A DNA stretch of 64,000 nt from Nitrospirota bacterium (GCA_963840455.1 CAWIYV010000004.1:64001-128000); one strand, 5' to 3'. Positions 37,573 through 57,863 are shown, counted from the first letter of the stretch. Notes: generated by a model from the letters alone, not told the origin. Numbers and translations are program-made.

Positions 37573-37701
37573 TCGGAAAGGAAACCGGAGGATGTTCTTC
37601 CACACCACAGAAGGGTACCCTGTTTTTGTCTCGAAAGCGTTTTGCCAGGGGTATAATAAAGGCCCGGCTGAATGCGTACAATTCCCGAAAGGAGGACATC
37701 C

Positions 37702-38226
37702 ATGAAAGCACTTATCATCAGCGCAGACGGCTACGAAGACTCGGAGCTTCTCGTTCCCTATTATCGATTCCTCGAGGAAGGCATCGAAACGGACATCGCA
37801 TCAATGACGAAAGGTCCCCTCAAGGGGAAGCACGGATATGAAGTGGAGGCAACGAAAACGCTGGCCGACATTGCACCCGATGATTACGACATCCTGCTCT
37901 TGCCCGGCGGCAGGGCCCCGGGCGTGGTGCGGAAGGAGCGGACGGCCGCGGAGATCGCGAAAGATTTCTTCACGAAGGGCAAGCCCGTTGCGGCCATCTG
38001 CCACGGTCCGCAGATCCTTATAACCGCTGGACTCCTGAAAGGGAGACGTGCCACCTGTTATCGGACCGTTGCGGACGAGCTCAAGGCGTCGGGTGCCCTG
38101 TATGAGGACCAGCCGGTGGTCGTCGACGGCAACCTCGTGACCTCCCGCCAGCCTTCGGACCTTCCGGCGTTCATGCGGGAGGTCATGAAGATGGTCAGGG
38201 ACCGGGCTGGCAAGAGCGCGGCATGA
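37702..38226 (+). CDS. PfpI/DJ-1 family protease/deglycase
   Basis: GYEDSEL, LPGG, AAICHGP, VVDGNLVTSRQPSDL. Confidence 0.92.
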   Translation: MKALIISADGYEDSELLVPYYRFLEEGIETDIASMTKGPLKGKHGYEVEATKTLADIAPDDYDILLLPGGRAPGVVRKERTAAEIAKDFFTKGKPVAAICHGPQILITAGLLKGRRATCYRTVADELKASGALYEDQPVVVDGNLVTSRQPSDLPAFMREVMKMVRDRAGKSAA

Positions 38227-38303
38227 ACGGTAGATCTGCTGTTTCAATGGTAGGTTGGATCAAGCAAAACGCAACCCTGGGGCTTCTGTCATCTTCCATC
38301 TCA

Positions 38304-38762
38304 TTTCGTCACCTTTCTTGCTTGCCCGAAGAAAGGTGACACAAAGAATGCACCCGGCGAACATTCTGATCCGGCATTCTCGGTCGTCATCGGTACATTT
38401 TAGAAACTCGCCCGAAAGTGGTAAGAGTGGGCTCAGGCAGTCTAAAATGTTTAACCCTCTGACTCGGTCGACTGCCGGGAATGTTCGCATGGGACTTCTC
38501 AAGTCTTTGCCGTACCCAAACCCCGCACGTCCACGGAGCGGCCCTATACATTTTCTGGGGCACCCGTCTTGGCCAAAGGAAGCATCCCGAAGGGCGACGC
38601 GTACTGTCTGAGGCCGAAGGCCGAGTTTACGCGGTCGAGCTGACGTGGCCTTAGACGGGTCAGAAAATGTATTCAGGCCGCGAAGGAGATGTGCAAAAAA
38701 ACCAAGCATCCTGACCATCAGCGAAAGTCCCGTTCTTTACATCATCCTTTCTTTTGTCACCT
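38304..38762. repeat. Structured ~450-bp repeat (family AB) copy 1: A, B, linker and start of the next A
   Basis: Starts tttcgtcacctttcttgcttgcccgaagaaaggtgac; the B half contains ctgtctgaggccgaaggccgagttt; related copies at 39668, 40797, 43941, 44899 and 50043. Confidence 0.9.
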
Positions 38763-38782
38763 GAATGTATCTTCTCCAGATA

Positions 38783-39553
38783 CTACGTGGGGAACACGAC
38801 ACCGGACAAGCGTGCGCACTCTGAAAGATACTTGTCCTGGACAGCCGGGTCCGCGGCAGCCGGGTGACAGCTCCGGGGTTGCTGATGAGAGAAATATCTT
38901 CCCGAGACCAGGGCTTCCTTCTCCTGGCTCACCGCCAGCCACACCTGCGTCCGCGACCCTTCCTCGATGCTGACGGGAGCTCCCCGTCCTCCCATCTTCG
39001 TGGCTGCCCAGCCGGGGTCCACGGCATTGGACAATACGTCGGGCCATTTGCGGGCAACGGCAAAGGCAAGGATGACGTTGTGCAGCTTCGTATCCGAGTA
39101 GGCGCCCGATCCGGCACAAGGCCGTCTGCTCCACGTGAGGTCGTTCAATGTGGCGTCGCCGCTTCGATGGAGACCAGAGCTTGTATAGACCAGGCGTTGA
39201 GGCCTCCTGATCAGACAGGTCAGGATATAGGGGGCCAGCGAGTTCACAACGAACATCTCCGGCAGGCCGTCGACGGTCAGGCTGCAGTAGGAATCGCCGT
39301 AGACGCCGGCATTATGGATCACGGCATCGATCGGTCCGACTTCGTTCACCTGGTCGGCAAGGGTCCTCGTTTCTGCGATAATTGCAAGATCGCCCACAAT
39401 GGCGGTCATTGCGCCTGGAACTTTTAAAAGCGCCTCATCTGCCCGATCCCTATTGCGGCCATGCAGCACAACCTGGTGGCCCTGGCTGACCAGCATCCGC
39501 GCCTCCATGAGACCGAGACCGTCAGAAGAGCCTGTAATGAATATTTGTGCCAT
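38783..39553 (-). CDS. SDR family oxidoreductase
   Basis: ITGSSDGLG, HNAG, YSDTK (YxxxK), VDPGW. Confidence 0.92.
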   Translation of the reverse strand: MAQIFITGSSDGLGLMEARMLVSQGHQVVLHGRNRDRADEALLKVPGAMTAIVGDLAIIAETRTLADQVNEVGPIDAVIHNAGVYGDSYCSLTVDGLPEMFVVNSLAPYILTCLIRRPQRLVYTSSGLHRSGDATLNDLTWSRRPCAGSGAYSDTKLHNVILAFAVARKWPDVLSNAVDPGWAATKMGGRGAPVSIEEGSRTQVWLAVSQEKEALVSGRYFSHQQPRSCHPAAADPAVQDKYLSECARLSGVVFPT

Positions 39554-39617
39554 GGAAAATTCTCCGTACCTGCTTGATTATAGCGCGGGCAATGGGCAGC
39601 GGAAAGCCGAGAAAGCA

Positions 39618-39649
39618 GTAGGTTGGGTTAAACGATGCGCAACCCAACA
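39618..39649 (+). repeat. GTAG-type REP-like hairpin
   Basis: GTAG-GTTGGGTT-aaacgatgcgc-AACCCAAC; degenerate copy at 38250-38277. Confidence 0.65.
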
Positions 39650-39667
39650 GCTTCTAATCTTCATCTC

Positions 39668-40197
39668 TTTTCGTCACCTTTCTTGCTTGCCCGAAGAAAG
39701 GTGACGCCAAAGAAGGGCACCCGGCGAAAATCCTTCACGGCATGCTTGGTCGTCCTCGGTACATTTCGGAAACTCGCCCTGCGGGCTCAGACAATCCGAA
39801 ATGTTTAACCCTCGTCCTCGGTCGCCTGCCTAGATTTTCGCATGGGGTATACCCCAAACCCCGCACGTCCCTGGAGCGGCCCTATGAATTTTCTGGGCAC
39901 CCGTCTTGGCCTAAGTCAGCGTCCCGGAGGGCGCTGCGCACTGTCTGAGGCCGAAGGCCGAGTTTGCGCGAGCGAGCTGACGTGGCCTTAGTCGGGTCAG
40001 AAAATTCATTCAGGGTGCGAAGGGGATATGCAAAAAAACCAAGCATCTTGATCATCAGAGAAGGGCACCCGACGAAAATTCTTCACGGCATGCTCAGTCG
40101 TCCTCGGTACATTTCGGAAACTTGCCCTTCGGGCTTCGGACATCCGAAATGCTTAACCCTCGTCCTCGGTCGTCCGCCTAAATTTTCGTATGGGGTA
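39668..40197. repeat. Family AB copy 2 (A-B-partial A in tandem)
   Basis: A at 39668-39846, B at about 39855-40038, second internal A from agaagggcaccc at about 40059. Confidence 0.9.
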
Positions 40198-40255
40198 GCC
40201 TAAGAGCGAAAGCAACACGCATGAAGGCAAGAAAGATATGCTGTGGCGAAAACGT

Positions 40256-40708
40256 TCAATGCTTGCCGACGATCTGAAGGGTCCTGGAGTCGCGTTTGCC
40301 CTGGTAATACTTGTCGAGGACGCGGCCGAAGACCGACTGGGGACCGGATACAACCTCGAAGAGCGTCATGGACGATTGCAGTTTCCAGTCGTCGGGGTGG
40401 CCGAAGATATCCGAAGCCGATCGTCCCTGGATGGCCAGGACCGCTTCCGCGCACTCCAGGAGTCGCGGTCCGAGAACAGGGTGGGCAAGGTAGTGCCGCG
40501 CTTCTTCAAGGCTCTTGATGGAATACCGTCGCGTCGTGGGGCTGTGCCCCAAGCCCTCGACCTGCGGGAAGATATACCACATCCAGTGCGAGCGCTTCAG
40601 GCCGTCACGCAGCTCAGCAAGAGCGCGGTCGTAGATCCCTTCCTGCGCGTTGGTGAAGCGGCTCAGATCGAATGGATCACCGCGATCCGAAGTATTGGCT
40701 CTTTGCAT
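40256..40708 (-). CDS. DUF1810 family protein
   Basis: DPFDLSRF, KRSHWMWYIFPQ, YLAHPVLGPRL, KLQSSMTLF. Confidence 0.9.
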   Translation of the reverse strand: MQRANTSDRGDPFDLSRFTNAQEGIYDRALAELRDGLKRSHWMWYIFPQVEGLGHSPTTRRYSIKSLEEARHYLAHPVLGPRLLECAEAVLAIQGRSASDIFGHPDDWKLQSSMTLFEVVSGPQSVFGRVLDKYYQGKRDSRTLQIVGKH

Positions 40709-40796
40709 CGTTAGGCCCACTGCCCTGCGAGAATAGGATACCAATATTTAAGCCTGACTCTCGAAGGTCCATACGGTTATCTGTAGGGAGCTTCAA

Positions 40797-41025
40797 CATC
40801 AGCGAAAGTCTCTACCTTTACATCCTCTTTTCTTTTGTTACCTTTCTTGCTTGCCCGAAGAAAGGTAACCGAAAGAAGGGCACCCGGCGACCATTCTGGT
40901 CCGTCATGCTCGGTCGTCTTCGGTACATTTTAGAAACTCGCCCGAAAGTGGTAAGAGTGGGCTCAGACAGTCTAAATTGTTTAACCCTCGGACTAGGTCA
41001 CCTACCGGGAATGTTCGCATGGGAC
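40797..41025. repeat. Family AB copy 3 (linker + A)
   Basis: catcagcgaaagtc..tttacatc..ttttgttacctttcttgcttgcccgaagaaaggtaac...gaatgttcgcatggg. Confidence 0.88.
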
Positions 41026-41075
41026 TCCTCCATACTTTACCCTGTACCCTGTCCCCGTGTCTCCGTGTCTCCGCG

Positions 41076-42485
41076 TCACCGTGTCTGCAGTTTGGGCGTG
41101 ATGTTCTGGTTCAGCCGGAACAGGTTTGTCGGATCGTAGCGGGCCTTGATCGCCACCAGCCGTTCCCACGCCGGTCCCGGGTATGCCTCGTGGATCCGTG
41201 CCTCGCCGTCCCTACCCAGAAAATTAACGTAAGTTCCCGATTCACCCTGTCGCAGCGCCGCAAGGAAGCCCGTTACCCAGGCTTCGTGCTTTTCCGCCTC
41301 CTCAAGATGATCGTACACCGCGCCGACCGCGGCCAGGATCCTTCTCCCGCGGTGGCTGAAGGCGGTCGCTTCGACAGGCACGCGCGCCATTGCTCCTCCG
41401 AGCACCCGGATCTGCGCCACGGCGAGAGGCGCGGTCGAGGCCCGCAGTTGTTCAAGGATCATCTGTGCCGTACCGCGGCCGACGGTGTCCCTGAATACCG
41501 TGCGGGCGGACTCTCCGACCGGATGGGGGCCGCCCTCGGTCAATGTGTAAATCTCCGGATAGCGCATCGCCCGCACCATATCGGCGAGCGGTACGGCTAG
41601 TCTCCTGAACGGGGCTATGACACGTTCCCCTTGTTCGATGGGGCCGGCATAGGCCATCATTGCCATTATGATGAGTTTGCCATACGCCTCCTTGGGCAGA
41701 AAGGGCATCGGGGGCGCGATCATGACATTGGCGATGACCGACAGTTCGTCGGCTGCTGCCTCCGCCTCTACTACGAGCGACGCGATCACCTCGGCCGTCG
41801 CCGGCAGGACCAGCATACCGCCCATGACCATGCCGATGTCATGGAGCCGGAACCGGAAACGGGTGGCAACGCCGAAGTTGCCGCCGCCCCCGCGGATGGC
41901 CCAGAAAAGATCGGGGTGCGTCGAAGCATCGGCGCGGACGAGCCGGCCGTCAGCGGTCACGATATCAGCGGCAAGAAGGCTGTCGATCGTGAGGCCGTGC
42001 TTGCGGACAAGATACCCGATGCCGCCCCCGAGCGTGAGCCCCCCGATCCCGACCGATCCCGTGTCGCCGAACCCGGTTGCGAGGCCGTAGGCATCGGCTT
42101 GGGCCGTGTATTCAGCCGCTGTCAGCCCGGTCTGGACCCAGGCAGTCCGCCCTGCAGCGTCGATCTCGAGCGCCCGCAGAGCGGAAAGGTCGAGCACGAT
42201 CCCGCCTTCCGATGTACCGTGGCCCGCAAGGCTGTGGCCGCCGCTGCGGACGGCAAGCTCCAGCCCGGCTTCAGCGGCCAGCAATACGACGCGGCTGACA
42301 TCGTTCTCTTCAGCGGCCCGGACGATGACCCGCGGCCTGCGATCGACCCACCCGTAAAAGACCGTGCGCGCCTGTTCGTACTCCCCGTCTTCCGGCGCTA
42401 TCACCCGGCCTTTGACCGCGGAACGAAGCTTTGCTATGAGGATACGTTCATCCATATTAATCACGACTATCGCGTTCTTGAACAT
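41076..42485 (-). CDS. FAD-linked oxidase (berberine-bridge-like)
   Basis: VRSGGHS, GLTLGGG, WAIRGGGGNFG, YVNF and YDPTNLF motifs. Confidence 0.93.
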   Translation of the reverse strand: MFKNAIVVINMDERILIAKLRSAVKGRVIAPEDGEYEQARTVFYGWVDRRPRVIVRAAEENDVSRVVLLAAEAGLELAVRSGGHSLAGHGTSEGGIVLDLSALRALEIDAAGRTAWVQTGLTAAEYTAQADAYGLATGFGDTGSVGIGGLTLGGGIGYLVRKHGLTIDSLLAADIVTADGRLVRADASTHPDLFWAIRGGGGNFGVATRFRFRLHDIGMVMGGMLVLPATAEVIASLVVEAEAAADELSVIANVMIAPPMPFLPKEAYGKLIIMAMMAYAGPIEQGERVIAPFRRLAVPLADMVRAMRYPEIYTLTEGGPHPVGESARTVFRDTVGRGTAQMILEQLRASTAPLAVAQIRVLGGAMARVPVEATAFSHRGRRILAAVGAVYDHLEEAEKHEAWVTGFLAALRQGESGTYVNFLGRDGEARIHEAYPGPAWERLVAIKARYDPTNLFRLNQNITPKLQTR

Positions 42486-42547
42486 ATTATAACATTGGTG
42501 TGACGGTTTACAGGGGAATCGCCATGCGGAGACATCGAAGTAGCTTA

Positions 42548-42634
42548 TATCCGAGGGAGTTCTAAGAAGGGAAAAGCTCTTTCAGGAGTATGAGCAGGCG
42601 ATGGTGTGGAAGGGCCGGAAGGAGCACTAACTAC
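42548..42634 (+). pseudogene. Short second copy of the SprT-like 3' fragment at 56263-56443
   Basis: gaagggaaaagctctttcaggagtatgag is shared exactly with about 56378-56407; flanks also similar. Confidence 0.65.
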
Positions 42635-42775
42635 TTTTCTAATCAGGGATGGACCTAAGCAGGAAATGTCAATACCGAAGCCTAACCCCATACGGTCTTA
42701 TTCTATGCGGAGAGGGCGGCAAAGGAGGCAAAGATAGCAGCGAAAGCGGCTATTTGCAACAAAAGAGAGCTGACC

Positions 42776-43633
42776 CTAAAGATTCAGGTTCATGCTGATG
42801 CTTGCGAGAATCGCGAAGATGACGAGGTCCGCGCATACGTGCGCAAGCCAGGGAGCCACCATGCCACGGCTTTTGCGGCGGATATGGCCGAGCATGATGC
42901 CGTAGATGAAGGCCATGCCAAAGCCCCATACCCCTTTCGGGAACCCCTGAAGAAAGTGCAGCGCGCCGAACAGGCCCGCCTGAAGAAGAAGCGAGAGAGC
43001 GCCGGGACCAAAGGCGCTGTCCGTTGACTGCATCACGATGCCGCGGAAGGCGGTCTCTTCCATGGCGGCGTTCAGGAAAGCGAATCCCAGGCCCAGGAAG
43101 GGATAGGTCCAGAACGGGACGGCCGGAATATAGGCGAGATGGCGGGAGAGATCAGGGCGCAGCGCGTAATTCCAGAGATACAGGGCTATGCCCGATAGTA
43201 CCGCTGTTGCCGCCACGAGGACCAGGATGCCCTTTCCGAGCTGACCCGGCCGCAGCCACGAGAGGGCCGAGCGGAGCTTCGGGACAAGGAGCGCGATCGG
43301 GAAATAGACGATGAGCGGGATGAGAAGTTTGTAAGGCCAGTTGCGGAACAGAGGAGACACGAGGGGCGCTGTTGTTACTGCGAGGAAGAAGAGGGAAAGG
43401 CTAAGCGCCTGCCTGCTGCTGACAAAGAATGAGGCGAGCATCAGAAGAACGAAGAAACCTGCTGTCCCGACGCCCGCTCCCGGCGTTGCTACGGCAACAA
43501 AAAAGGCAGCCAGGGAGATGACGATGATCAAGCTCCCGGATAAGGACGACTTCTCAGGCGGCTCGATGTATTGACTGAACATGGGAGGACGACTTTCTGG
43601 AGAATGAAAACATTTTTCTGCATCCCGGTTCAA
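42776..43633 (-). CDS. CPBP (CAAX/Abi) intramembrane glutamic endopeptidase
   Basis: EETAFRG, FGALH and AHVCAD motifs; multiple TMs. Start may be at about 43582. Confidence 0.9.
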   Translation of the reverse strand: MNRDAEKCFHSPESRPPMFSQYIEPPEKSSLSGSLIIVISLAAFFVAVATPGAGVGTAGFFVLLMLASFFVSSRQALSLSLFFLAVTTAPLVSPLFRNWPYKLLIPLIVYFPIALLVPKLRSALSWLRPGQLGKGILVLVAATAVLSGIALYLWNYALRPDLSRHLAYIPAVPFWTYPFLGLGFAFLNAAMEETAFRGIVMQSTDSAFGPGALSLLLQAGLFGALHFLQGFPKGVWGFGMAFIYGIMLGHIRRKSRGMVAPWLAHVCADLVIFAILASISMNLNL

Positions 43634-43786
43634 AGGTCTGTGCAGGCATGCATTGCCGCCCTGTTTACAAGTTTACTCGAGCACCGCAGCACTTCCCCTC
43701 GCCCGAAAAAACGGGCTCGGCCGTGTCTTCCTGGCTTGGTGGTGGCATTGGCCGGGACCGCTTTCGCATGCTTGTGCACAGACCTG

Positions 43787-43893
43787 TTGAAGCTCCCAAA
43801 AGCAAACTGCATGGAGCTTCGATCCTCAGGGTAGTCTTTATTCTAGTCGCTCGCTGAGCCCAAACTGCGGGGCTGAGCTCGCTCCTGGATTCA
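43787..43893 (+). repeat. ~110-bp MITE-like repeat (family C) copy
   Basis: ttgaagctccc...ttcgatcctcagggtag...tcgctcgct...gctcgctcctggattca; other copies at 44083-44197 (inverted), 44286-44373, 45694-45809, 46510-46703 (tandem pair) and 49847-49954. Confidence 0.88.
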
Positions 43894-43940
43894 CGGGATG
43901 CAGGGGCCCCTGGAAAGTCAGAGGCATTGGTCTTTTATCC

Positions 43941-44383
43941 AAGCCCCGCATGTCCCCGGCGCGGCCCTATGAAATTCCTGGGCCCCCGTCTTGGCCTAAG
44001 GCAGCGTCCCGCAGGGCGAACGCGCATGTCTGAGGCCGAAGGCCGAGTTTGCGCGGGCGAGCGGACGTAGATTAAGGGTCAGGAATCCAGGAGCGAGCCT
44101 ATTCCGCGTGCCTTACTGCGGGATCGGCGAGCGATTAGAATGATAAAACTTCCCTACGGATCTGAGATTCCCTGGAGCATGCTGCAGGGAACGTCAATTT
44201 CATTCAGGACGCGAAGGGGATATGCAAAAAATGAAATAATATACCCACTCACGTTTAACCCTCTTCCTCGGTCGCCTGCCTGGATTTGCTCCCAAGTGCA
44301 AACGGTAGTGGAGCTTTGATCCTCAAGGTTGTATGTTTATCCTAAACGCTCGCTATGCGCTCGCTCCTGGATTTTCGCATGGG
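43941..44383. repeat. Family AB copy 4, interrupted twice by family C
   Basis: B half broken at 44083-44197 and A fragment broken at 44286-44373; AB sequence resumes after each insert. Confidence 0.8.
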
Positions 44384-44419
44384 ACTGCAGAATCGATACA
44401 GCCTGATAGCCCGGCGCCA

Positions 44420-44857
44420 CTATGCCGCAGCGCTTCCTTTCCCCAGCATTCCCGTTGACGACTCAACATAGCGAGTAAAGTTGTTGAGAATGGCTTGCCA
44501 CCCTCCCCGCTGCACTTCGATGGGATTTGTTTGTTCACTATCAAACGTTACGCGGACCCTGACGCCGCTCGGGCTATCGGCAAACTCGACCTGCGCCGCA
44601 CGGTCGCCGAAGGAATACTCGATCAGCTCGTGCTCCACGATCTTTGTGTAAGTCCCGGCGAAATCAAATCCCATACTGCCGTCCTTTGCCTCCATCCGTG
44701 AGGAGAAGGTACCGCCCACGCGCAGATCCACAGTGGCCTTGGTCGTGTGCCAATCAGCCGATGCGGCATTCCACTGTATAATATCCTCCGGTGTCGTATA
44801 GGCGGCCCAGACCTGTTCGATGGGCGCCTTGACTATGGTTTCAACGGTGATCTTCAT
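44420..44857 (-). CDS. SRPBCC/AHSA1-like protein
   Basis: APIEQVW, QWNAASADWH, RMEAKDGSMGFDF, QRGGWQAILNNF. Confidence 0.9.
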   Translation of the reverse strand: MKITVETIVKAPIEQVWAAYTTPEDIIQWNAASADWHTTKATVDLRVGGTFSSRMEAKDGSMGFDFAGTYTKIVEHELIEYSFGDRAAQVEFADSPSGVRVRVTFDSEQTNPIEVQRGGWQAILNNFTRYVESSTGMLGKGSAAA

Positions 44858-44898
44858 AGTGTGCCTCCTCTTGAATAGCAACTAATATCAATCTTTTA

Positions 44899-45090
44899 TT
44901 TTGTCACCTTTCTTGCTTGCCCGAAGAAAGGTGACCCAAAGAATGCACCCGGCGAACATTCTGATCCGACATCCTCGGTCGTCCTCGGTACATTTTAGAA
45001 ACTCGCCCGCTAATGGTTTGAGTGGGCTCAGACAGTCTAAAATGTTTTACCCTCGTACTCGGTCGCCTGCCGGGAATGTCCGCATGGGAC
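44899..45090. repeat. Family AB copy 5 (A only)
   Basis: ttttgtcacctttcttgcttgcccgaagaaaggtgac...gaatgtccgcatggg. Confidence 0.88.
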
Positions 45091-45169
45091 TTCTTAATAC
45101 TGATTCCTTCCACCTGCCTCGCGCGACGGGGCCTCCATCCTTATTCTCCGCTTACTTTGTCGCGCCGGG

Positions 45170-45652
45170 TCAGCCCTTATATGCCCGCTCGAGCGTCTTG
45201 ATGTCGAACTTCTTCATCTTGAGGAACGCCTCGGTCACCCGGGCAAGCCGCTCCCCGTTCTTGTCCTTCATCATTTTGTCCATGGCCGCCGGAACGATCT
45301 GCCACGATAGGCCGTACTTGTCCTTGAGCCAGCCGCACTGCTCCGCTTCCGGTACCGCCGAGAGCCTCTCCCAGTAGTAATCGATCTCCTTCTGGGTCTT
45401 GCAGCGGATGATGAACGAGATCGATTCGTTGAATTTGAAGAGCGGCCCGGCCGAGAGCAGCATGAACTCCTGCCCCATGAGGTCGATCGTGACGATCTCC
45501 ACCGTGCCGGACGGCGTGTTATTGAGCGTCGTTGTGCTCTTGATCTTCGACTTGGGGAACAGGTCGGTGTAGAATTCAGCCGCCTCCCTGGCCTCCTTGT
45601 CGAACCAGAGATGGGTCGTGATCTTATGGGTCATTATGGGTTTCTTCGTCAT
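45170..45652 (-). CDS. VOC family (PhnB/3-dmu-9-3-mt-like) protein
   Basis: ITTHLWFD.EAREAA, FKFNESISF, CGWLKDKYGLSWQI. Confidence 0.92.
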   Translation of the reverse strand: MTKKPIMTHKITTHLWFDKEAREAAEFYTDLFPKSKIKSTTTLNNTPSGTVEIVTIDLMGQEFMLLSAGPLFKFNESISFIIRCKTQKEIDYYWERLSAVPEAEQCGWLKDKYGLSWQIVPAAMDKMMKDKNGERLARVTEAFLKMKKFDIKTLERAYKG

Positions 45653-45693
45653 GTTCGTTCGCCTCCTTCTTTCTGCCGCCTTCCCTACTGCAA

Positions 45694-45809
45694 TTGAAGC
45701 TCCCTGTAGCAAGCTGCAGGGAATCTTCGATCCTTAAGGAAGTATCGTTATACTAATCGCTCGCTAACCCAGCGGCAAGCTACGGGGAATGCGCTCGCTC
45801 CTCGATTCA
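45694..45809 (+). repeat. Family C copy
   Basis: ttgaagctccctgtagcaagctgcagggaatcttcgatcc...gcgctcgctcctcgattca. Confidence 0.88.
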
Positions 45810-46091
45810 TCACAGCTTTCTGCAGGGATCTTAAATATAGTATACCACTGGAGGGCCGGCTTACCTGTGGATCTTCCCGCGGGGGACAGGACGGAGCATG
45901 CATCCGCGGGAATGTATGAGAAGTCAATGGCGCAGGAGAGTCGGAAGGAGCAATGACGGGAGAATATCATGATGTCAGGAAATCATGTCTGACCCGCTAC
46001 GATAAAAAAACATCTTGTTGTATTGTTGCGCATATTGTAATATATGCCCAAACGTATAAAGTCGGCCCGGGAGGGCCAACCAAGGAGGATC

Positions 46092-46481
46092 ATGATGGAT
46101 TCAAAGAAATTTTTGTTCGTGCTGTCCCATGCGAAGTCAAATCTCAAGGAAGTGATCGTCATGCTGAAGATCATTTCCAATATGAAGGCATTCGAAGACG
46201 ATGTAGAGATAGCGGTATTCCTCGTCGGAGAAGGCGTCGAGCTTGCAAAAAAGGGAGTGGGAAAGACCATGACCATGGAGCTGGAAGGCAATCAGGTCAA
46301 CGTCGGCGAGCTGCTGGACATGATGCCCGACTTTAATGTGAAGTTCTACGTTTGCCACGCCTTCATGCCGTTGCATAACGTTCTCAAGGAAGACCTGATC
46401 GAAGGGGCCGAGATGAAAGGAAGTTCCTACCTCGGCGAGCTGCTCCTGGCCGGCTACACTCCTTTTCCGATGGCCATGTAG
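46092..46481 (+). CDS. DsrE-like protein
   Basis: VFLVGEGVELAKKG, FYVC..F, LIEGAEM pattern. Confidence 0.7.
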   Translation: MMDSKKFLFVLSHAKSNLKEVIVMLKIISNMKAFEDDVEIAVFLVGEGVELAKKGVGKTMTMELEGNQVNVGELLDMMPDFNVKFYVCHAFMPLHNVLKEDLIEGAEMKGSSYLGELLLAGYTPFPMAM

Positions 46482-46509
46482 AAACCAGCTATCCCTGCAG
46501 TGTCAGGCG

Positions 46510-46703
46510 TTGAAGCTCCCTGCAGCAAGCTGCAGGGAATCTCCGATCCTCAGGGTAGAACTATATTATTCTCATCGCTCGCTCCTGGATTGAAGCTCCC
46601 TGAAGATAACGGCATGGAGCTTCGATCCTCAAGGTACCTCTTTATCCTCATCGCTCGCTAACCCCGCAGCAAACTGCGGGGAATGCGCTCGCTCCTGGAT
46701 TCA
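46510..46703 (+). repeat. Two tandem family C copies
   Basis: Head-to-tail junction ...gctcctggATTgaagctccc at about 46590. Confidence 0.85.
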
Positions 46704-46705
46704 TA

Positions 46706-46733
46706 AAGGCCGGAGAGACATTCCGGCTTTTCT
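46706..46733 (+). terminator. Candidate intrinsic terminator between convergent genes
   Basis: GCCGGA-gagacat-TCCGGC followed by TTTTCTT. Confidence 0.45.
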
Positions 46734-46809
46734 TGTCTGCGCTTTTTCTCCGGTTGCGACGTCTTCTTACTTCATCTGTAATCAGCATGGGGTCACCCAT
46801 TTGAAGGCT

Positions 46810-47721
46810 CTAGATTGAACAAACGCCCGTTGCGGAATCGCACGCTGCAGCACTGACCGTTGGCAGGAGAAAATAGCCGTTGCCTGCTTCACGCTTCCGG
46901 ATCATCCGCTTGTTCAACAGCGAGTCGATCGCGTTCTTCAGTTCGTCATTGGTAAGGTCGAAGGTCATCTGGATCTCGATCGGCGCCGCGGAACCATACT
47001 TGGTTATGAACGCCATGATCGTCTCTTCATTGGCCGCGACCGGATGTTCCTGGATCTCTCCGCCCGACAGATGCCCGATCAGCGCCTTGAACTCCTCATA
47101 CCGTTTGTATCCTCGGATCGTCATCTCCCTCTCCCCATATTTCAGCAGGAATGAAGGAAAGCCTCGCGCCCCGTACCTGGCCGTGACCGCAAGGTCCTGC
47201 TCAAAGGCTCGTTGCGCAGGACCATGGGTAAAGTCATCGAGGAAACGGGCAATATCAAGCCCGACCTCCGATGCCAGTTCCAGCAGGATCTCGGTCTTGT
47301 TCGTTTGCCTGGCCTCGGCAGCCGAAGCTTCCCGGATGCGCCGAAGGAACTTGTTTGCGAGCTTCTGATCCTGAATTTGTGCGGCCTTATAGGCGATGTT
47401 CTGCGGATACGTTGAGGGATGCTCCCGGGAAAAGAGCTTGAAGCCCTCGCTCCTCACCGGCATGCCGTGACGTTCGGACGCATCCACCCAATGTTTGGCA
47501 ATGTTCCTGTTGGAGCGGTCAGGGTCGCCGCCGATGTCATTATAGCTGTCATAGAATGACGTGATGTCCTGGACCAGCCCGCCCATGATGTAGCCGATAT
47601 TTATTTGTTCACCGAACCTGGTTTCGAGCTTTCGGAGCACCGGTTCGCTGCCCCAGCACCAGGTACAAACAGGATCGGTAAATTCGGTGATCTCTATCAT
47701 CTTATTGTTTGTTGTATTCAT
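46810..47721 (-). CDS. DsbA/YjbH-like thioredoxin-fold protein
   Basis: FTDPVCTWCWG, HGMP, GFPSF; C-terminal ACD..TGVC. Confidence 0.88.
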   Translation of the reverse strand: MNTTNNKMIEITEFTDPVCTWCWGSEPVLRKLETRFGEQINIGYIMGGLVQDITSFYDSYNDIGGDPDRSNRNIAKHWVDASERHGMPVRSEGFKLFSREHPSTYPQNIAYKAAQIQDQKLANKFLRRIREASAAEARQTNKTEILLELASEVGLDIARFLDDFTHGPAQRAFEQDLAVTARYGARGFPSFLLKYGEREMTIRGYKRYEEFKALIGHLSGGEIQEHPVAANEETIMAFITKYGSAAPIEIQMTFDLTNDELKNAIDSLLNKRMIRKREAGNGYFLLPTVSAAACDSATGVCSI

Positions 47722-47898
47722 GACGGATCATACCTCTTAGACGTACCTCGGTCACCCCGGGGGCGGCGTCGAGTTGATCAAACGGCTACTTCTGTTGATT
47801 AACGTATAGCACTCCTCCGCCATGCCAAAAGATGGCGATTGAGTTCCGCTCCATGGTACAATTAAAGCAGGATAACAGTTCACTAAGGAGGTGTCGCC

Positions 47899-48429
47899 AT
47901 GAAAAAGACCCTATTGTTCATTGTCGTGATCCTGTCTGCCTTCGCGTTCGGTTCATCGGCCTTCGCAGGAGAAAAGATGGGAGCGCCTGTTGCTCATTCC
48001 AAGGACTTTGATCGGATGAAAGGGCTGGTGGGCGTATGGGAAGGAAAGGCGGATATGGGAAAAGGCGTGGAGCAGTTCAAGGTTACCTATGAACTGACGT
48101 CCGCGGGCAACGCCATCGTGGAGAAGTTCGCGGCCGGCCAACCCCATGAGATGGTCACGATGTACCATGACTATAACGGGAAGCTTGTTCTGACCCACTA
48201 CTGTTCGCTCGGGAACCAGCCCCACATGGAGCTCACGACATCCGGGGATGGCGCCATGCTGTTCGCCCTGTCGGAAAAAGCGCCGAACCTTGTCTCGCTG
48301 CAGGAGACGCACATGCACGCCCATGGCATCGTCATCGACGGCAAGAACAGTATGACGCAGACCTGGACGCTCTATGACAAGGGAGCGAAGGTGAACGAGG
48401 TGTCGGTTAAGTTGATACGCGTAATGTAA
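47899..48429 (+). CDS. Secreted hypothetical protein
   Basis: Signal peptide; EMVTMYH..LTHYCSLGNQPHM; RBS AAGGAGG. Confidence 0.75.
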   Translation: MKKTLLFIVVILSAFAFGSSAFAGEKMGAPVAHSKDFDRMKGLVGVWEGKADMGKGVEQFKVTYELTSAGNAIVEKFAAGQPHEMVTMYHDYNGKLVLTHYCSLGNQPHMELTTSGDGAMLFALSEKAPNLVSLQETHMHAHGIVIDGKNSMTQTWTLYDKGAKVNEVSVKLIRVM

Positions 48430-48498
48430 CAGAGACGCCGCAGGAAGCGGCGCACCTGGTCCGGGATTGCCGAGATCCAGGCCGGCGATCGAGGGGAC

Positions 48499-49092
48499 AT
48501 GAGAAAAATAATCGTCTTATCAATGATCACCTTAGATGGAGTAATGCAAGCACCTGGTGGACCTAAGGAAGATACGTCAGGCCGTTTCAAATATGGCGGT
48601 TGGGTTGCACCTTATGGTGACGAAGTTTATGGCAAGGTCATGGAAAAACAGATGAAACCTGCAGATCTTCTTTTGGGCAGAAAAACATTTGAGATTTTTG
48701 CCTCCTACTGGCCAGAGCATGAAAATGGATGGCCGGGCATCAATGATGTCACAAAATACGTCATGTCCAAGACCAAGAAAAAGTCAGATTGGAAAAACTC
48801 GGTTTTCCTCAAAAACCTGGCAGATATCAAAAAGCTCAAACATTCAAAAGGTTCTGACATTAAAGTCTGGGGCAGCGGTAAACTTATTCAGCTGTTGCTG
48901 AAGAATGATCTCGTGGACGAACTCTGGCTCAATATTCACCCGTTGACTCTTGGTAAAGGAAAAAAGTTGTTTGACAATGGCGCGATCCCGGCAGCATTTA
49001 CATTAATAGAGAGTACTGTTACAACAAGTGGAGTGATTATTGCCAATTACAAGCGAGCTGGAAAAGTCAAGACAGGTACTGTTGGAGCTTAA
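48499..49092 (+). CDS. RibD-C/dihydrofolate reductase family protein
   Basis: ITLDGVMQAPGG, LLLGRKTF, GSGKL, LVDEL, LGKGKKLF. Confidence 0.92.
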   Translation: MRKIIVLSMITLDGVMQAPGGPKEDTSGRFKYGGWVAPYGDEVYGKVMEKQMKPADLLLGRKTFEIFASYWPEHENGWPGINDVTKYVMSKTKKKSDWKNSVFLKNLADIKKLKHSKGSDIKVWGSGKLIQLLLKNDLVDELWLNIHPLTLGKGKKLFDNGAIPAAFTLIESTVTTSGVIIANYKRAGKVKTGTVGA

Positions 49093-49201
49093 GGCGGCTA
49101 ACCTATTAATATTTTCCCAGATACGCTGATGTCTTCACCAGGCGTTCTACAAACGCCTCATTTTCTCTGTCAAATGTAAAGACTTGATCCTATAGGTTTT
49201 A

Positions 49202-49261
49202 CTTCATGAACCACTTGGCAGATCAACAAGTCATCAATTCAAGTCTGACCCCCGACAGTCC
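49202..49261. repeat. Family E direct repeat, copy 1 (partial)
   Basis: cttcatgaaccacttggcagatcaacaagtcatcaattcaagtctgacccccgacagtcc. Confidence 0.88.
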
Positions 49262-49316
49262 TACCCAGATTCAAGTCTGACCCGATACGTCCGCACTAAG
49301 AGGTCCGGGCATACCG

Positions 49317-49844
49317 CTAGCCGACCTTGCCAGGATGTTCGCGCCGAACCATCTGGATAACCTCGTCCAGTTTCTGCAAAAAGCTTGACCTGTCGCGGCT
49401 GGAGAAGGGTGCCGGCCCCCCGGTGATCTCGCCGTTCCCACGCAGTTCTGCAAGCAGGTTACGGGTTGCGACCGCATCTCCGATATTTTCCTCGGTGAAG
49501 GCCTTCCCCGTATGGCCGATCGCGTACGCACCAGCTTTGATGCATCGGCTCGCGAGGAGAACATCAGCCGTGACCACGATGTCGAGGGGAGTGATATTGG
49601 CAACGATCCAGTTGTCGGCCTCATCGAGCCCATCGCCGACAACGTGAAGTACGATCCCATCCTCGGTGGGCACGCGCATCCAGGAGTTGGCCACCAGGGT
49701 GACACCTATAGCATACCTGGCTGCGACCCGGTAGACCTCTTGCTTCACCGGGCATGCGTCGGCATCTACGAAAATATTCAGCAATCGATATCCTTGTTTG
49801 ACAAACTCAGAAGGATCCAGTGAGGTTGTCTCCAGCCGATCCAT
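49317..49844 (-). CDS. YaiI/YqxD (DUF188) family protein
   Basis: IFVDADACPVK, EADNWI, VTADVLLA, GGPAPF..DR..F; true start may be about 60 nt downstream. Confidence 0.9.
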   Translation of the reverse strand: MDRLETTSLDPSEFVKQGYRLLNIFVDADACPVKQEVYRVAARYAIGVTLVANSWMRVPTEDGIVLHVVGDGLDEADNWIVANITPLDIVVTADVLLASRCIKAGAYAIGHTGKAFTEENIGDAVATRNLLAELRGNGEITGGPAPFSSRDRSSFLQKLDEVIQMVRREHPGKVG

Positions 49845-49846
49845 CG

Positions 49847-49954
49847 TTGAAGCTCCCGCCAGCAACGGCATGGAGCTTCGATCCTCAGGGTAGTAATTTA
49901 TTCTAATCGCTCGCTAACCCCGGTTACGGGGAATGCACTCGCTCCTCGATTCAA
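49847..49954 (+). repeat. Family C copy
   Basis: ttgaagctcccgccagcaacggcatggagcttcgatcc...ctcgctcctcgattcaa. Confidence 0.85.
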
Positions 49955-50042
49955 TTGTTGGGTCTTCTGACTTTCGTGTGGGCATGCAAAGTGTTTTTAA
50001 AGAATAATATGCTGAATTATCAGGCCTCAGACGACCTTCCAG

Positions 50043-50430
50043 CCACCTTTCTTGCTTGCCCGAAGAAAGGTGGAGCCAAAGAAGGGCACCCGGCGACCAT
50101 TCTGATCCGTCATGCTCGGTCGTCCTCAGTACATTTCAGAAACTCGGGCTTCGCCCTCAGACAGTCTGAAATGTTTAACCCTCGGACTCGGCCGCATGAC
50201 GGGAATGATCGCATGGGTGGAGGTCAACGGCTTTACAAGCTTTTACCCAAACCCCGCATGTCCCCGGAGCGGCCCTATGAATTTTCTGGGCACCCGTCTT
50301 GGCCAAAGGCAGCGTCCCGCAGGGCGCTGCGCACTGTCTGAGGCCGAAGGCCGAGTTTGCGCGGGCGAGCGGACGTGGCCTTAGTCGGGTCAGAAAATTC
50401 ATTCAGGACACGAAGGGGATATGCAAAAAA
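50043..50430. repeat. Family AB copy 6 (A-B)
   Basis: ccacctttcttgcttgcccgaagaaaggtgg...ctgtctgaggccgaaggccgagttt...tatgcaaaaaa. Confidence 0.9.
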
Positions 50431-50486
50431 AGTTACATGGGCGAATATTACCCACACAAAACCCGGAAGATCGCAATTTTTTTGAT

Positions 50487-51389
50487 CTAGTCAAGCGCCC
50501 CATGTTCTTTTGCAGTCTTGATCCAGTGTTCGGCCAGTTCGGCAGGATCTGCGCCCACACCACGGCCAAGGTGCAGCGCCAATCCCATCAATAATTCCGA
50601 TGCCTTGCGGAGATCGGTGACATTGTCCAGGGTGCCAAATGATCCTTGAGCTTTCAAAAGGAGGAGATCGTGATGCTGGCGAGAAAAAGCTGTGGAATCC
50701 TGTAAGCCATCCGCGAACACAGGGATCATCAACAGGTCGATCCACTCGGGACCAAGCCGGTCCTGCAATTGTTCTGGCTCTTCTCTGCCCATCTCTCGCC
50801 AGAGACGCAAGGTCTGCCGGTCACCCGATCCGGCCAAGCCACTTTCCAGCAGAAAGGCGAAAGCGCTGTCAGCTAAACGTTGCATCAGTTCGAGATACTC
50901 ATCCTGAGCAACTTCGAAGCGCTTCGCGGCCTGTGCTTCAATGTAGGCGGCAACACTCAATCGAGGCAGATCTAAAACTTCCGGACACCCTTCTATACAG
51001 GGGAAATCACTCCCTTGGTACAGGTAGTAAAGCTCCTCGCCCTGCCTTTGGCGGCCAAGAGGATACAACCGGCAGGCCAATGGGCGCCGCGAATGCACGG
51101 TGCAGCCGAGATCAGGTGCATACTGGCTACATGCCGGCTGCTGTCTCCAGCCGGGTGCACCATCAAAACGCAACTGGATGCCACCAAAATCGCAGTAACG
51201 ATCGCGAAACACCCTCGGTGTCATTCCTTTTGCTTCAGCCATACACGCCAGTTCCCACGGGTTCAACCAGACAGTTTTGCCATGACAGCAGGTGCCTGAA
51301 CGTGAACAGGTAAGCGGCAGAATATCAGTAAGGGTGAGTTTTGTCGTGACCGACATTGCGGGTTTTCCTTTTGTCTTCCCTTTGTTCAA
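50487..51389 (-). CDS. YkgJ family (CxxCxxCC-like) Fe-S/Zn cluster protein
   Basis: CSRSGTCC, C..Y, CTVHSRRPLACRLYP. Confidence 0.85.
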   Translation of the reverse strand: MNKGKTKGKPAMSVTTKLTLTDILPLTCSRSGTCCHGKTVWLNPWELACMAEAKGMTPRVFRDRYCDFGGIQLRFDGAPGWRQQPACSQYAPDLGCTVHSRRPLACRLYPLGRQRQGEELYYLYQGSDFPCIEGCPEVLDLPRLSVAAYIEAQAAKRFEVAQDEYLELMQRLADSAFAFLLESGLAGSGDRQTLRLWREMGREEPEQLQDRLGPEWIDLLMIPVFADGLQDSTAFSRQHHDLLLLKAQGSFGTLDNVTDLRKASELLMGLALHLGRGVGADPAELAEHWIKTAKEHGALD

Positions 51390-51950: not shown

Positions 51951-52011
51951 GGGGGATACTAACAAAACAGACAGGCAAAGGCAATCGAAGAAAGAGTATC
52001 GGACAAGTAGT

Positions 52012-52115
52012 AGCGTGTGATCGAACAACTACAGATCCACGTCTGACCCCAAACGCTTCATGACTCACTTGGCAGATTAACAAGTCATCAAGTCAAGTCT
52101 GACCCTCGACAGTCC
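52012..52115. repeat. Family E direct repeat, copy 2
   Basis: gcgtgtgatcgaacaactacagatccacgtctgaccccaaacgcttcatga...caagtctgaccctcgacagtcc. Confidence 0.9.
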
Positions 52116-52127
52116 TTATTAGTTCAT

Positions 52128-52568
52128 CTATAGTTCTTTCACTTCCACTCGGGCTTGAGTCCATGTATGCCGGCAATTCTTGCAACTCATATGATCCGTG
52201 TAACCCGTTCTCATGACCGGGACGATTACTTCTTTTTCAATAGTCCTGATGATCTGACCTTTTGCATTTTTCACACGCTCAGTCAGCTTCTTCGTCTTAG
52301 TACCTTTTTCCCGTCCATTCTGTACAGAAGATTCTAGTTTAGCAACGAACCAATAGCTGCATGACGGACAACGCAAAGTCTGCCCCCAATAATAATACCC
52401 TGCTGAAATGAGTGCGCACGCAGCACCGATTAGTTCCGCGATCCGTATTTTTGACCCCGCGTCCCCGGGAGGAAGTCCATGGAAATACCGCCATGCTAAA
52501 TTGACACCGAAAAGCGCCGGAAGAATGATAAAGAGCAGCCAACGCACACCAGGACGCATTTTGTTCAT
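52128..52568 (-). CDS. Two-TM protein with C-terminal Zn ribbon
   Basis: Two TMs, CPSC ... CKNC; ATGA overlap with the upstream gene. Confidence 0.75.
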   Translation of the reverse strand: MNKMRPGVRWLLFIILPALFGVNLAWRYFHGLPPGDAGSKIRIAELIGAACALISAGYYYWGQTLRCPSCSYWFVAKLESSVQNGREKGTKTKKLTERVKNAKGQIIRTIEKEVIVPVMRTGYTDHMSCKNCRHTWTQARVEVKEL

Positions 52569-53302
52569 AGGTCATTTCCTCCATCCAGCGTATTTGCTTT
52601 CTTAATCAAAAACGTCGACGGTTGTATACTAGCCGCCGCTATATCCCACAAAAGAATATGTTTTCGAAACAACTGACTGAATTCATCCTCGAATCTTTCC
52701 AGATATTGAGCCACCTTCTTGAAGGTTATGATCGATTCACCATCAGGACCCGGTTGCAGATAAATAACCTTAATGTCCGTCCTGATATTTTCGATCGAGA
52801 TACACGATATGGCATCTGATACTCGTTTCCGATCCTTTGTATAGAGATAGTCTTCGATCTCCTTTTGGGCGCGCATCGTAATGAATCCAAGGTCCTGTAA
52901 CATCACCATAAGATGGTAATACTTCTTTTTTTGTATTGTCGCTTTAAACACCGGCACCAATTGAAAAAGGATGTCCTGGAATCTCATGTTGGATGCGCTG
53001 ATGAGATAGGCGTCTTGTTTCTCCCTACGAGATCCCAGGTCGGTCTTCAATTCGACAAAATACGCAGTATGTAGGTCCCTGCTAAACAGCACATAATCTA
53101 CATTCACGGTTCTCTGCGATCCGGGATCATCAATGAGTGGAAATTCAGGGATGATGCATTCTGCAAGGGAGGATGCAGGTGCGATATATTCCTCCAGAAG
53201 GCCTTTCAAATAGAGCGAGAAGAAAATATCGGCGCGTCTTTCCAGCTGATATTTGGGAAGATTCCGCCAACGCGTGAGGTTATTGAATATCGTATCGAGC
53301 AT
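52565..53302 (-). CDS. Putative PD-(D/E)XK nuclease-like protein
   Basis: LERRAD, PEFP, VDYVLF..YFVELKT, QDAY pattern. Confidence 0.6.
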   Translation of the reverse strand: MLDTIFNNLTRWRNLPKYQLERRADIFFSLYLKGLLEEYIAPASSLAECIIPEFPLIDDPGSQRTVNVDYVLFSRDLHTAYFVELKTDLGSRREKQDAYLISASNMRFQDILFQLVPVFKATIQKKKYYHLMVMLQDLGFITMRAQKEIEDYLYTKDRKRVSDAISCISIENIRTDIKVIYLQPGPDGESIITFKKVAQYLERFEDEFSQLFRKHILLWDIAAASIQPSTFLIKKANTLDGGNDL

Positions 53303-53359
53303 TCCAGTAGTTCCGCCCTGCATATGTTATCCTTCCAGTCATCGCCTACGTGATTCTTG

Positions 53360-54601
53360 CTATATTTCTAGGATCTGTCCGTCCGGCACTACCCGTACAT
53401 TGTGAAATAGATCGGAATACTCGTGTCCAAATTCTGTATGGATGGGAATAAGCTGTTTCGGTTTCAAAGCCGCTTCGAACACCTGTAGATCTTCAGTTGT
53501 CGCATGGCCGCTCGTATGCGCGTAAATGAAGTTAACATCCTTATCCTGACGGTATGCAGAAAGCTTGTCAGCACCTGCGAGACCGCTCCCTGCGCTATCG
53601 ACATATCCGAGCCATTGCGAATATATAACGTTCACAGGCTTCTTACCCTTAAATCGTTCGATGAGATTCGCCCGCGATGCCTTGATCAGATAAAGATAAT
53701 TCGAAGGATATTCCTTGAGCTCTTCACGCCGAACACGGTACTGATAGACCTTCCTTCGAAAACCTGCGAACACGGAAGGATGTTCTCTCATGACCTTGTC
53801 GTGTGCGTGGTCAGCATAGACACGCAGGTTATCCCACCCGATCGACGGGGTATGGCAGGAAACGCTTTGGACACATTCCAGAACCCAAGTGGTATACAGA
53901 TCCAGTACGAGTGTCTTGCCAGCCCTTTTGCAGGCATTGTACGCTGAAACGATCCGATCAATGTTCTGCGACGATGAGATCAGGAAGGATATGTTCTCCT
54001 GCGACCTGATCGTCATATATATCATGTCCTCGACCGCGCGTTCTGTCGAATACTCGGTATTGTCCCTGCGGATCATCGTGCCTTCCATCAGGAGCACATC
54101 GATGTCTTTCGGCGGCTTCTCTGTTAGTTTATCGAATAGTATCGATTTTCTCCCATGGGAACGGAAATCTCCACTGTAGAAAATCCTCTTGTTCTCGGCC
54201 TCCACCAGGAACGCATAGGCATCAACTGCAGAGTGGTCCATAAGATAAGGCGTAATGCTGAAGTCTCCGATCCGAATAGGCGTCCATTTTTCAAAGAACC
54301 GGAACGGGTTCCCCAGCGGGCCCATGCCGAGGAATATGCGGGTCACATCGATTAGCTGTTTCGCCAAAGCACCGATATAGACTGGTACAGCTTTGTCAAG
54401 AATATCGAGGAGTCCATAATGATCCTGATGAGGGTGACTGATGATCACCGCGTCGGGCTTCAAGGACAGGATATTTGCATTATCGCGCTCATCATTGCTC
54501 AACGGTCGACCCATATCGAGAAGCAGTGTTGTCTCACCGGATGTTAGTTGAATGCAGGTACCTCCGATTTCATGGGCACCCCGATGTATTACAATTCTCA
54601 T
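53360..54601 (-). CDS. MBL-fold beta-CASP (RNase J-like) nuclease
   Basis: EIGGTCI, SHPHQDH, DHS, SGDFR, HTSGHA and PIH motifs. Confidence 0.88.
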   Translation of the reverse strand: MRIVIHRGAHEIGGTCIQLTSGETTLLLDMGRPLSNDERDNANILSLKPDAVIISHPHQDHYGLLDILDKAVPVYIGALAKQLIDVTRIFLGMGPLGNPFRFFEKWTPIRIGDFSITPYLMDHSAVDAYAFLVEAENKRIFYSGDFRSHGRKSILFDKLTEKPPKDIDVLLMEGTMIRRDNTEYSTERAVEDMIYMTIRSQENISFLISSSQNIDRIVSAYNACKRAGKTLVLDLYTTWVLECVQSVSCHTPSIGWDNLRVYADHAHDKVMREHPSVFAGFRRKVYQYRVRREELKEYPSNYLYLIKASRANLIERFKGKKPVNVIYSQWLGYVDSAGSGLAGADKLSAYRQDKDVNFIYAHTSGHATTEDLQVFEAALKPKQLIPIHTEFGHEYSDLFHNVRVVPDGQILEI

Positions 54602-54758
54602 ACTTTTCTCAATTCGGGTGCTGTCTGCGGACAGACTAAATACTGAGAACTACGCTAAGTGAGGATTAGGATGACATGGGAATGCCAAGATACAGAAGTT
54701 TCCTATTGCCATGAGAGTACTATAACTAGGATGAAATGGCAATTGAAGAAACAAATCG

Positions 54759-57840: not shown

Positions 57841-57863
57841 TCGACAGTCAAAGGTCGTCATAA

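Follow-up and report, generated by a model that had tools for sequence, protein, structure and literature searches.

The 64,000-nucleotide stretch analysed here comes from a Nitrospirota bacterium (GCA_963840455.1, CAWIYV010000004.1:64001-128000). We refer to the whole of it as the window; it corresponds to C4:64001-128000 of the genome called G000 below, which measures 4.03 Mb in 14 contigs. The window contains repeats built of two non-coding halves, A and B, each of which folds into a long rod. We propose that A-B probably makes up the core of ~510-550-bp miniature inverted-repeat transposable elements (MITEs), which form one family and are partnered with an insertion sequence (IS) of the ISL3 family. 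A first-pass annotation had described six copies of one mobile, non-coding, structure-selected element of 400-450 bp, and had considered it a single-stranded DNA (ssDNA) substrate of an HUH enzyme or a non-coding RNA (ncRNA). Mobility, non-coding nature and conservation of structure are borne out by target duplications, empty sites, lack of overlap with genes and covariation. The HUH enzyme finds no support.

Repeat finding between 38.3 and 50.4 kb of the window yields families that correspond to the annotated halves. A (~190 nt) begins with an outer hairpin, h1 (GTCACCTTTCTT...AAGAAAGGTGAC), and continues as a rod; B (~186 nt) also forms a rod, which bears a small side hairpin and terminates in GTGC and an A run. 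A third rod, F (~220 nt), is distinct from A, opens with a T run and CTGCACCCCGG, and precedes B at many places instead of A. The repeats do lie where they had been annotated, but A and B are separable modules and there is no single element: A+B is found at three of the six window loci, A alone at two and F+B at one. BLAST returns 29 pieces of A and 39 of B in G000, of which 22 and 28, respectively, are near full length. None of these 50 copies overlaps a called gene, their positions being intergenic only, and open reading frames (ORFs) spanning repeats have no match among the Pfam models scanned. Many of the other copies are mosaics or fragments (A alone, B alone, F-B, B-linker-A).

Ends, target duplications and the partner insertion sequence

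Locus 6 is a complete 514-bp MITE at window positions 49960-50473 (plus strand). It is composed of a left terminal inverted repeat (TIR, 49960-49982), A (50042-50219), B (50244-50431) and a right TIR (50451-50473), so that A+B spans 50042-50431. The TIRs, 23 bp each, read GGGTCTTCTGACTTTCGTGTGGG and the reverse complement of CGATCTTCCGGGTTTTGTGTGGG; because they are included, the mobile unit is longer than A+B. In G001, a genome of the same genus, 623 nt are missing at this place and the DUF188 gene abuts the next gene. The 623 nt represent two insertions, one repeat of family C (see below) and the 514-bp MITE, and the empty site of G001 reads GAATTGTT, then TTGATC. Comparison with G001 delimits a target-site duplication whose left copy, CAATTGTT, occupies 49952-49959 and whose right copy, CAATTTTT, occupies 50474-50481, the two being identical in seven of eight positions.

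Further insertions are found elsewhere. Between spoVG and tRNA/prs, G000 carries an F-B unit of 547 nt, flanked by ACTGTTTT and ACTATTTT, with ends of the same kind as those of locus 6. All five same-genus genomes compared lack it, one of them with flanks 95-96% identical. A third insertion site of G000 is likewise empty in 5/5 same-genus genomes, and a fourth is occupied in G003 by an F-B copy of reversed orientation. At the locus on contig C7, the intergenic DNA of G000 and G003 is too diverged for an exact duplication to be placed. TIRs of the same type also occur at G000 C11:347643/348158. In other genomes, TIR-A-B-TIR units of 510-532 bp were found at four loci. Their flanking octamers are identical in 8/8 positions in L144 and L150, in 7/8 in L156 and in 3/8 in L147; the inverted ends hold in L144, L150 and L156, where the units measure 525-532 bp. 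The insertion targets are AT-rich in a genome of 58% G+C. Among the 28 B copies, 11 have an ISL3-type end at most 220 nt away, compared with 64 of 2000 control windows (3.2%).

A search of G000 with the end sequences led to two copies of a 1,378-bp IS, at C11:167657-169034 and C7:250049-251426, which are 99.86% identical. The IS ends read GGGTCTTCCGGGTTTAGTGTGGG and GGCTCTTCCGACTTTTCAATGGG, and the copies carry 8-bp duplications of their own (ATTAATCA and AGAAAAAA). The long reading frame matches DDE_Tnp_ISL3 (E = 4.1e-71) as well as the ISL3 HTH and zinc ribbon (further E values 8e-13 and 2.1e-5). The partner is like members of the ISL3 family in these three domains, in 8-bp duplications, in ends starting with GG and in AT-rich targets; as a rule, elements of this family duplicate 8 bp and have ends that start with GG. 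Close relatives of this IS, with 79-91% protein identity, are present in four other genomes of the bacterial family. The first-pass annotation was right in seeing no cognate enzyme in the window: ISL3 transposase matches are confined to C11 and C7 of G000, and Y1/HUH matches to C10 and C14.

The ends of A-B units agree with the left end of the IS in 19-21 of 23 bases (19-20 for locus 6), more than the two ends of the IS agree with each other (16/23). The ends are all that is shared. A, B and F show no similarity to the IS interior (all E >= 0.15), and the IS has no rods and almost no non-coding DNA. As judged from these comparisons, the rods are cargo and not remnants of an IS. We suggest that an ISL3 transposase, or a close relative of it, moves A-B MITEs in trans. 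With 23-bp TIRs, 8-bp duplications, an empty site and IS-like ends, the A-B core is most likely mobilised by a DDE enzyme and not by an HUH enzyme.

That the repeats are single-strand elements of HUH type (derivatives of REPIN/RAYT or IS200/IS605) or attC sites of an integron therefore deserves next to no credence. Hairpins with a preferred strand would suit such elements, and so would a cassette-like neighbourhood of small, unrelated genes lying mostly on one strand; G000 also has two Y1_Tnp matches and a broken integron-integrase-like gene. However, inverted ends combined with 8-bp duplications are not products of HUH enzymes or integron integrases, and A and B prefer opposite strands. Both Y1_Tnp matches (on C10 and C14 only) contain in-frame stops and lie far from any copy. 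The annotation had proposed a search for a linked HUH/RAYT or reverse transcriptase gene; it turned up these two unlinked, broken matches, and an RVT_1 search of G000 found no reverse transcriptase. The integron was rejected, as the best integrase match scores 135.6 bits against a cut-off of 265 and belongs to a broken gene on another contig. As for attC sites (57-141 bp, with RYYYAAC/GTTRRRY cores), the rods measure 140-190 nt and display no core sites by inspection.

Several observations weigh against an ISL3-moved MITE. Firstly, both IS copies of G000 have an in-frame TGA at transposase codon 44 (L034:1266-1268 in the copy on C11), so G000 may lack a working transposase. A stop is present at the same transposase position in G011 and G002, and the gene of G047 is continuous with 430 codons; the stop could reflect a defect held in common, or else a site conserved for recoding or restart. 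Secondly, the ends of F-B units match the IS in only 14-15 of 23 bases, and these units may thus depend on another transposase. Thirdly, no right end can be recognised within 220 nt of 17 of the 28 B copies, and none is seen at window loci 1, 2, 3 and 5, whose mobility is accordingly judged by likeness. We infer that these loci are fragments and mosaics, such as nested insertions and rearrangement would leave behind.

Rod structure, covariation and strand

The earlier description of both halves as long rods agrees with folding. Compared with shuffled sequences, B reaches -87.5 kcal/mol as the plus strand (z = -6.2) and -81.0 kcal/mol as the minus strand (z = -4.3); A reaches -80.7 kcal/mol as the minus strand (z = -6.0) and -75.4 kcal/mol as the plus strand (z = -4.5). 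Alignments were made of 55 copies of B from nine genomes (25 from G000 and 30 from eight relatives; 50 consensus pairs, with the cap and side hairpins added by hand) and of 45 copies of A taken as the minus strand (44 pairs). In B, 97.4% of 2,680 cells are paired, and 21 of the 50 pairs and 148 cells are changed on both sides. On all five measures of covariation, every one of 500 shuffles falls short, and sliding the partners by 1-3 columns gives 13-25 doubly changed cells with 26-44% pairing. In A, the paired fraction is 97.1%, and double changes affect 17 of 44 pairs and 86 cells; 0/500 shuffles are as high and slid controls give 5-25 such cells. Since the copies are related, the shuffle and Wilcoxon figures overstate independence, which must be held against our conclusions. 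The four stem variants that the annotation quoted as covarying are all readable in the sequence, and compensatory change exceeds both kinds of control. A single B stem occurs in at least six different versions (haplotypes), all fully pairing.

The rods carry the same apical motif on opposite strands, as had been noticed. On the plus strand, 38 of 55 B copies have its strict form, TGTCTGAG-N(7-30)-CGAGTTT; on the minus strand, 34 of 45 A copies do. It is found on the opposite strand of none of the 55 B and 45 A copies. The cap hairpin within it covaries (GCC/GGC and ACC/GGC in B; CCC/GGG, GGC/GCC, TCC/GGA and TTC/GAA in A), and most of its loops have the form GNA, in keeping with the C-GNA-G loops of the annotation. 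The tandem G.A mismatches reported for the A rod stand in part: the stretches concerned are nearly invariant alignment columns, while G.A pairing is read by inspection only. Across copies, the rods retain the same purine-rich loops outside Watson-Crick pairing. A canonical k-turn, also compared by inspection, fits in the G-A/G-A arrangement but not in the loop and C-stem. No hammerhead or other ribozyme core is apparent in the apical motif by inspection, nor does it match Rfam.

Complementary arms might also be kept without selection. Template switching in a quasi-palindrome would then maintain pairing, and recent spread would mimic conservation. Some double changes in B are indeed transversions that leave no room for a wobble intermediate (15 copies go from A-U to U-A and 8 from U-A to G-C), and element identity between genera, 82-89%, is similar to that within a genome, as recent spread predicts. 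We still find this quite unlikely. Template correction should erase mismatches, yet internal loops, bulges, the apical motif and two conserved G.U pairs of B (in 50 and in 52 of 54 copies) are maintained across nine genomes. Mismatches are strand-biased, G.U over A.C, with opposite senses in A and B, and all of the haplotypes of the B stem just mentioned still pair. Conserved loops and strand-biased mismatches thus speak against the absence of selection. Structural conservation of the rods exceeds what is usual for MITE cores.

B is more stable as the plus strand in 26 of 28 copies with RNA parameters (mean difference 9.5 kcal/mol) and in 28/28 with DNA parameters; the A rod is more stable as the minus strand in 16 of 22 and in 21 of 22 copies, respectively. 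Read in these senses, the alignments contain 170 G.U against 34 A.C cells in B (65 against 34 when the two conserved G.U pairs are left aside) and 64 against 18 in A. Because each rod folds better on one strand, the evidence points to selection on a single-stranded form, RNA and ssDNA being indistinguishable here. The preferred strand of each rod runs 5' to 3' from the centre of the element to its nearer end (bottom strand for A, top strand for B). A transcript that crosses the element in either direction therefore carries one sense rod.

Possible roles of the rods

On balance we favour, tentatively and at less than even chance, a function of the rods at the RNA level (processing, stability or protein binding) in read-through transcripts, similar to what is ascribed to other MITEs and to bcr1 (PMC3184786). 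Correia/NEMIS elements are processed by RNase III and contain an IHF site. In A-B MITEs, the rods would come into play in transcripts that run from flanking genes across the element. By governing processing or stability, or by binding a protein, they might make an intergenic insertion tolerable, and the mirror arrangement of A and B would provide one sense rod whichever way the element lands. Counting against the RNA part of our proposal, there is no orientation bias relative to genes. Between co-directional neighbours, B lies in the same direction in 12 cases and in the opposite one in 8 (with 6 convergent and 2 divergent gaps); the figures for A are 5 and 10 (with 6 convergent gaps and 1 divergent). 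Rod F, moreover, has no strand preference (5/8 copies).

A bolder version, which we regard as rather doubtful, would make the rods a functional structured nucleic-acid module that uses the MITE as a vehicle, either a protein-binding or processing RNA or an ssDNA signal. The mirror pair would have evolved for orientation-proof exposure, and the whole would amount to a mobile cis-regulatory device dispersed among uncultured Nitrospirota. The module features in question are a fixed TGSCTGAG/CGAGTTT internal loop, tandem G.A stacks (by inspection) and the covarying cap.

Alternatively, the element may still be a MITE whose rods act in DNA, as ssDNA hairpins or cruciforms in replication or transposition, and are selected for the element's own spread. 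With DNA parameters, the preference for one strand comes out at least as consistently as with RNA parameters. The 3' end of the preferred strand lies at the nearer terminus, a two-fold symmetry that would be natural for a DNA transposon, and orientation bias relative to genes is missing. Tandem G.A pairs and GNA triloops are stable in DNA too. We nevertheless hold this to be unlikely. The cognate IS does without rods and with hardly any non-coding DNA, so the rods are unnecessary for ISL3 transposition as such, and the two conserved G.U pairs of B are more typical of RNA. Nor is the apical motif significantly like a terminal repeat. As a hidden transposase site it was rejected, since IS and MITE ends align to the A/B consensus, with or without the cap hairpin, no better than shuffled ends do (fractions 0.11-0.96).

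Finally, A and B could be host ncRNA genes, a multicopy small RNA family next to which the transposon ends are coincidental. Strong structural conservation and the conserved apical motif are what one would expect of such genes, but two 97%-complete genomes of the same genus have no B, insertion sites are empty in near relatives, and whole units, bounded by inverted ends and duplications, are found again in other genomes. Promoters and terminators are not consistently present either: 3 promoter-like sites were found against 1.6 expected and 1 terminator-like site against 3.0. No Rfam family matches; with Rfam 15, the window has no match at the gathering score, and at E <= 10 there are chance-level matches only, none along a rod. 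We therefore judge host ncRNA genes very unlikely. One terminator-like site lies at the right end of locus 6 (50433-50459, minus strand), where the TIR hairpin is followed by a T-run bordering B. When MITE ends are read inward, a modest hairpin (-1.7 to -12.3 kcal/mol) precedes a T-run in 14 of 20; these hairpins are too weak for inward-facing terminators to be claimed.

Layout in the window, distribution and related elements

Locus 1 spans 38308-38701 (A+B). To its left lies module G (38249-38307, plus strand; GGTAGGTTGG...CAACCC...), a shared flank read from the sequence. G has a small hairpin of its own, is not itself an ISL3-type end and recurs at 39618-39672, left of A at locus 2. Module A of locus 1 (38308-38496, minus strand), delimited by repeat finding, folding and the A alignment, comprises h1 at 38308-38340 and the rod. 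Its apical motif, at 38404-38439 of the minus strand, reads TGCCTGAG in this copy and has a long apical loop. Module B (38516-38701, plus strand), based on repeat finding, folding and alignment, comprises the rod, a side hairpin of the form CCC-GNA-GGG and the end GTGC + A7, with the apex TGTCTGAG-GCCGAAGGC-CGAGTTT at 38605-38628. A linker module follows together with the first bases of another A, which stops after GTCACCT (38702-38762, plus strand, repeat finding); the same linker also occurs before A at 40797-40836.

Locus 2 (39673-40038, repeat finding and alignments) consists of A at 39673-39848, preferring the minus strand, and B at 39853-40038, preferring the plus strand. A further A rod without h1, joined to B by the linker, extends over 40059-40197 (minus strand, repeat finding). 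Locus 3 is A alone (40837-41025, minus strand), with the covarying h1 variant GTTACC/GGTAAC, and locus 5 is likewise A alone (44903-45090, minus strand); both were delimited by repeat finding and the A alignment. The A of locus 5 begins 22 nt from the start codon of an AHSA1-like gene (44420-44881, minus strand). At locus 4, rod F (43613-43933, plus strand; T-run and CTGCATCCCGG) is split by a family C repeat at 43787-43889, and module B (43934-44231, plus strand) by an inverted one at 44086-44197. A partial ISL3-type right end follows B at 44232-44253. Next to it, the 3' part of an A rod in plus-strand sense (44254-44386, listed on the minus strand) is split by a third C repeat at 44285-44371.

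Repeat family C (~105-120 nt) starts with TTGAAGCTCCC, ends with GCTCGCTCCTGGA, has two internal hairpins and is unrelated to A and B. Its remaining copies in the window are at 45694-45813, 46510-46585, 46590-46704 and 49846-49950, with a partial inverted copy at 40753-40798. G000 has 272 BLAST pieces of it, of which 183 are near-full copies. C interrupts A, B and F at locus 4 as well as a gene, and so is itself mobile; no C copy lies near the two Y1_Tnp matches of G000. A C-family repeat is also found, together with a PD-(D/E)xK-like ORF, in the ~0.7 kb that split a tyrosine-recombinase gene at G000:C7:123648-127064 (matches at C7:125148-125564 and 126257-126316). This is the gene with the best integron-integrase score (135.6 bits), and it is possibly a dead integron integrase.

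The neighbourhood of the repeats, window positions 37672-51389, is occupied by a series of small genes unrelated to one another; most are on the minus strand, and nearly every gap contains a repeat. The genes are DJ-1/PfpI, SDR, DUF1810, FAD/BBE oxidase, CAAX protease, AHSA1-like, glyoxalase-like, DsrE, DsbA-like, RibD_C and DUF188. Loci 1 and 2 flank the SDR gene in G000. In G003, this gene and the two A-B units are lacking, and DJ-1 is joined to DUF1810 by 209 nt that hold only the 3' half of an A rod. Farther on, at 52000-62000, G+C content is 0.41-0.50 compared with ~0.58 elsewhere in the window; this is possibly acquired DNA.

The exact B cap motif was searched in one genome per species (185,579 species) and found at 42 loci, which include the four with TIR-A-B-TIR units described above. 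Of the 42, 40 belong to records under the titles Nitrospirae, Nitrospirota or Nitrospiraceae and two to one metagenome-assembled genome (MAG) titled Betaproteobacteria. The latter two (L171 and L177) are on short contigs of 8.2 and 4.1 kb, and mis-binning or transfer may account for them. Of 24 genomes searched in the same family, 13 have B and 13 have A; of 16 searched elsewhere in the phylum, one has B and none has A. The A-B family is thus widespread but patchy, and occurs almost only in uncultured Nitrospirota.

MITEs are defined by TIRs, direct repeats and long RNA stem-loops (PMC3184786). Bacterial MITEs that derive from an IS or are parasitic on one share with A-B elements small size, non-coding nature, TIRs, target duplications, many copies, intergenic location, stem-loops and presence or absence between strains (PMC3184786). 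A-B elements differ in that their core is unrelated to the IS interior and made of interchangeable rods (A, B, F and linker); at 510-550 bp they are at the large end. The bcr1 repeat of the Bacillus cereus group is mobile and flanked by direct repeats, and compensatory changes, reported for this transcribed repeat, keep its two-hairpin, cruciform-like structure (PMC3184786). It is ~155 bp long and has 5-bp repeats (PMC3184786), whereas A-B rods are far longer, have opposite-strand preferences and are unrelated in sequence. Correia/NEMIS elements of Neisseria are intergenic MITEs whose hairpin acts in read-through RNA (PMC3184786), and offer a model for the RNA reading of the rods. Unlike A-B elements, they measure 100-155 bp, duplicate TA and have no known cognate IS; they also come from another phylum and differ in sequence. 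REPINs, moved by RAYTs, are also non-autonomous hairpin repeats whose pairing is kept within a genome (PMC3116915). Each REPIN combines two short REPs, lacks inverted ends and duplications, and relies on a Y1 enzyme; A-B fits none of this.

The first-pass annotation had staked its view on covariation and on a place outside described MITEs and Rfam families. Covariation is significant and Rfam is silent, but the element is a MITE, although none such was found described. A literature search at the level of titles and abstracts gave no description of such elements in Nitrospirota, nor of ISL3-linked bacterial MITEs like them. By analogy with bcr1, MITEs whose core is conserved in structure can be regarded as an already known kind. 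What is new, as far as could be seen, is this family together with its partner IS and its strand-specific rods in mirror-image arrangement.

Taken together, an apparently enzyme-less, "viroid-like" repeat becomes a tractable MITE, for which a partner IS can be named and both the exact ends and empty sites are at hand. For annotation of Nitrospirota MAGs this is relevant because A-B repeats break assemblies and spawn false ORFs. If the function of the rods in RNA or ssDNA is true, then A-B elements would represent an example of a regulatory structure dispersed by transposition.

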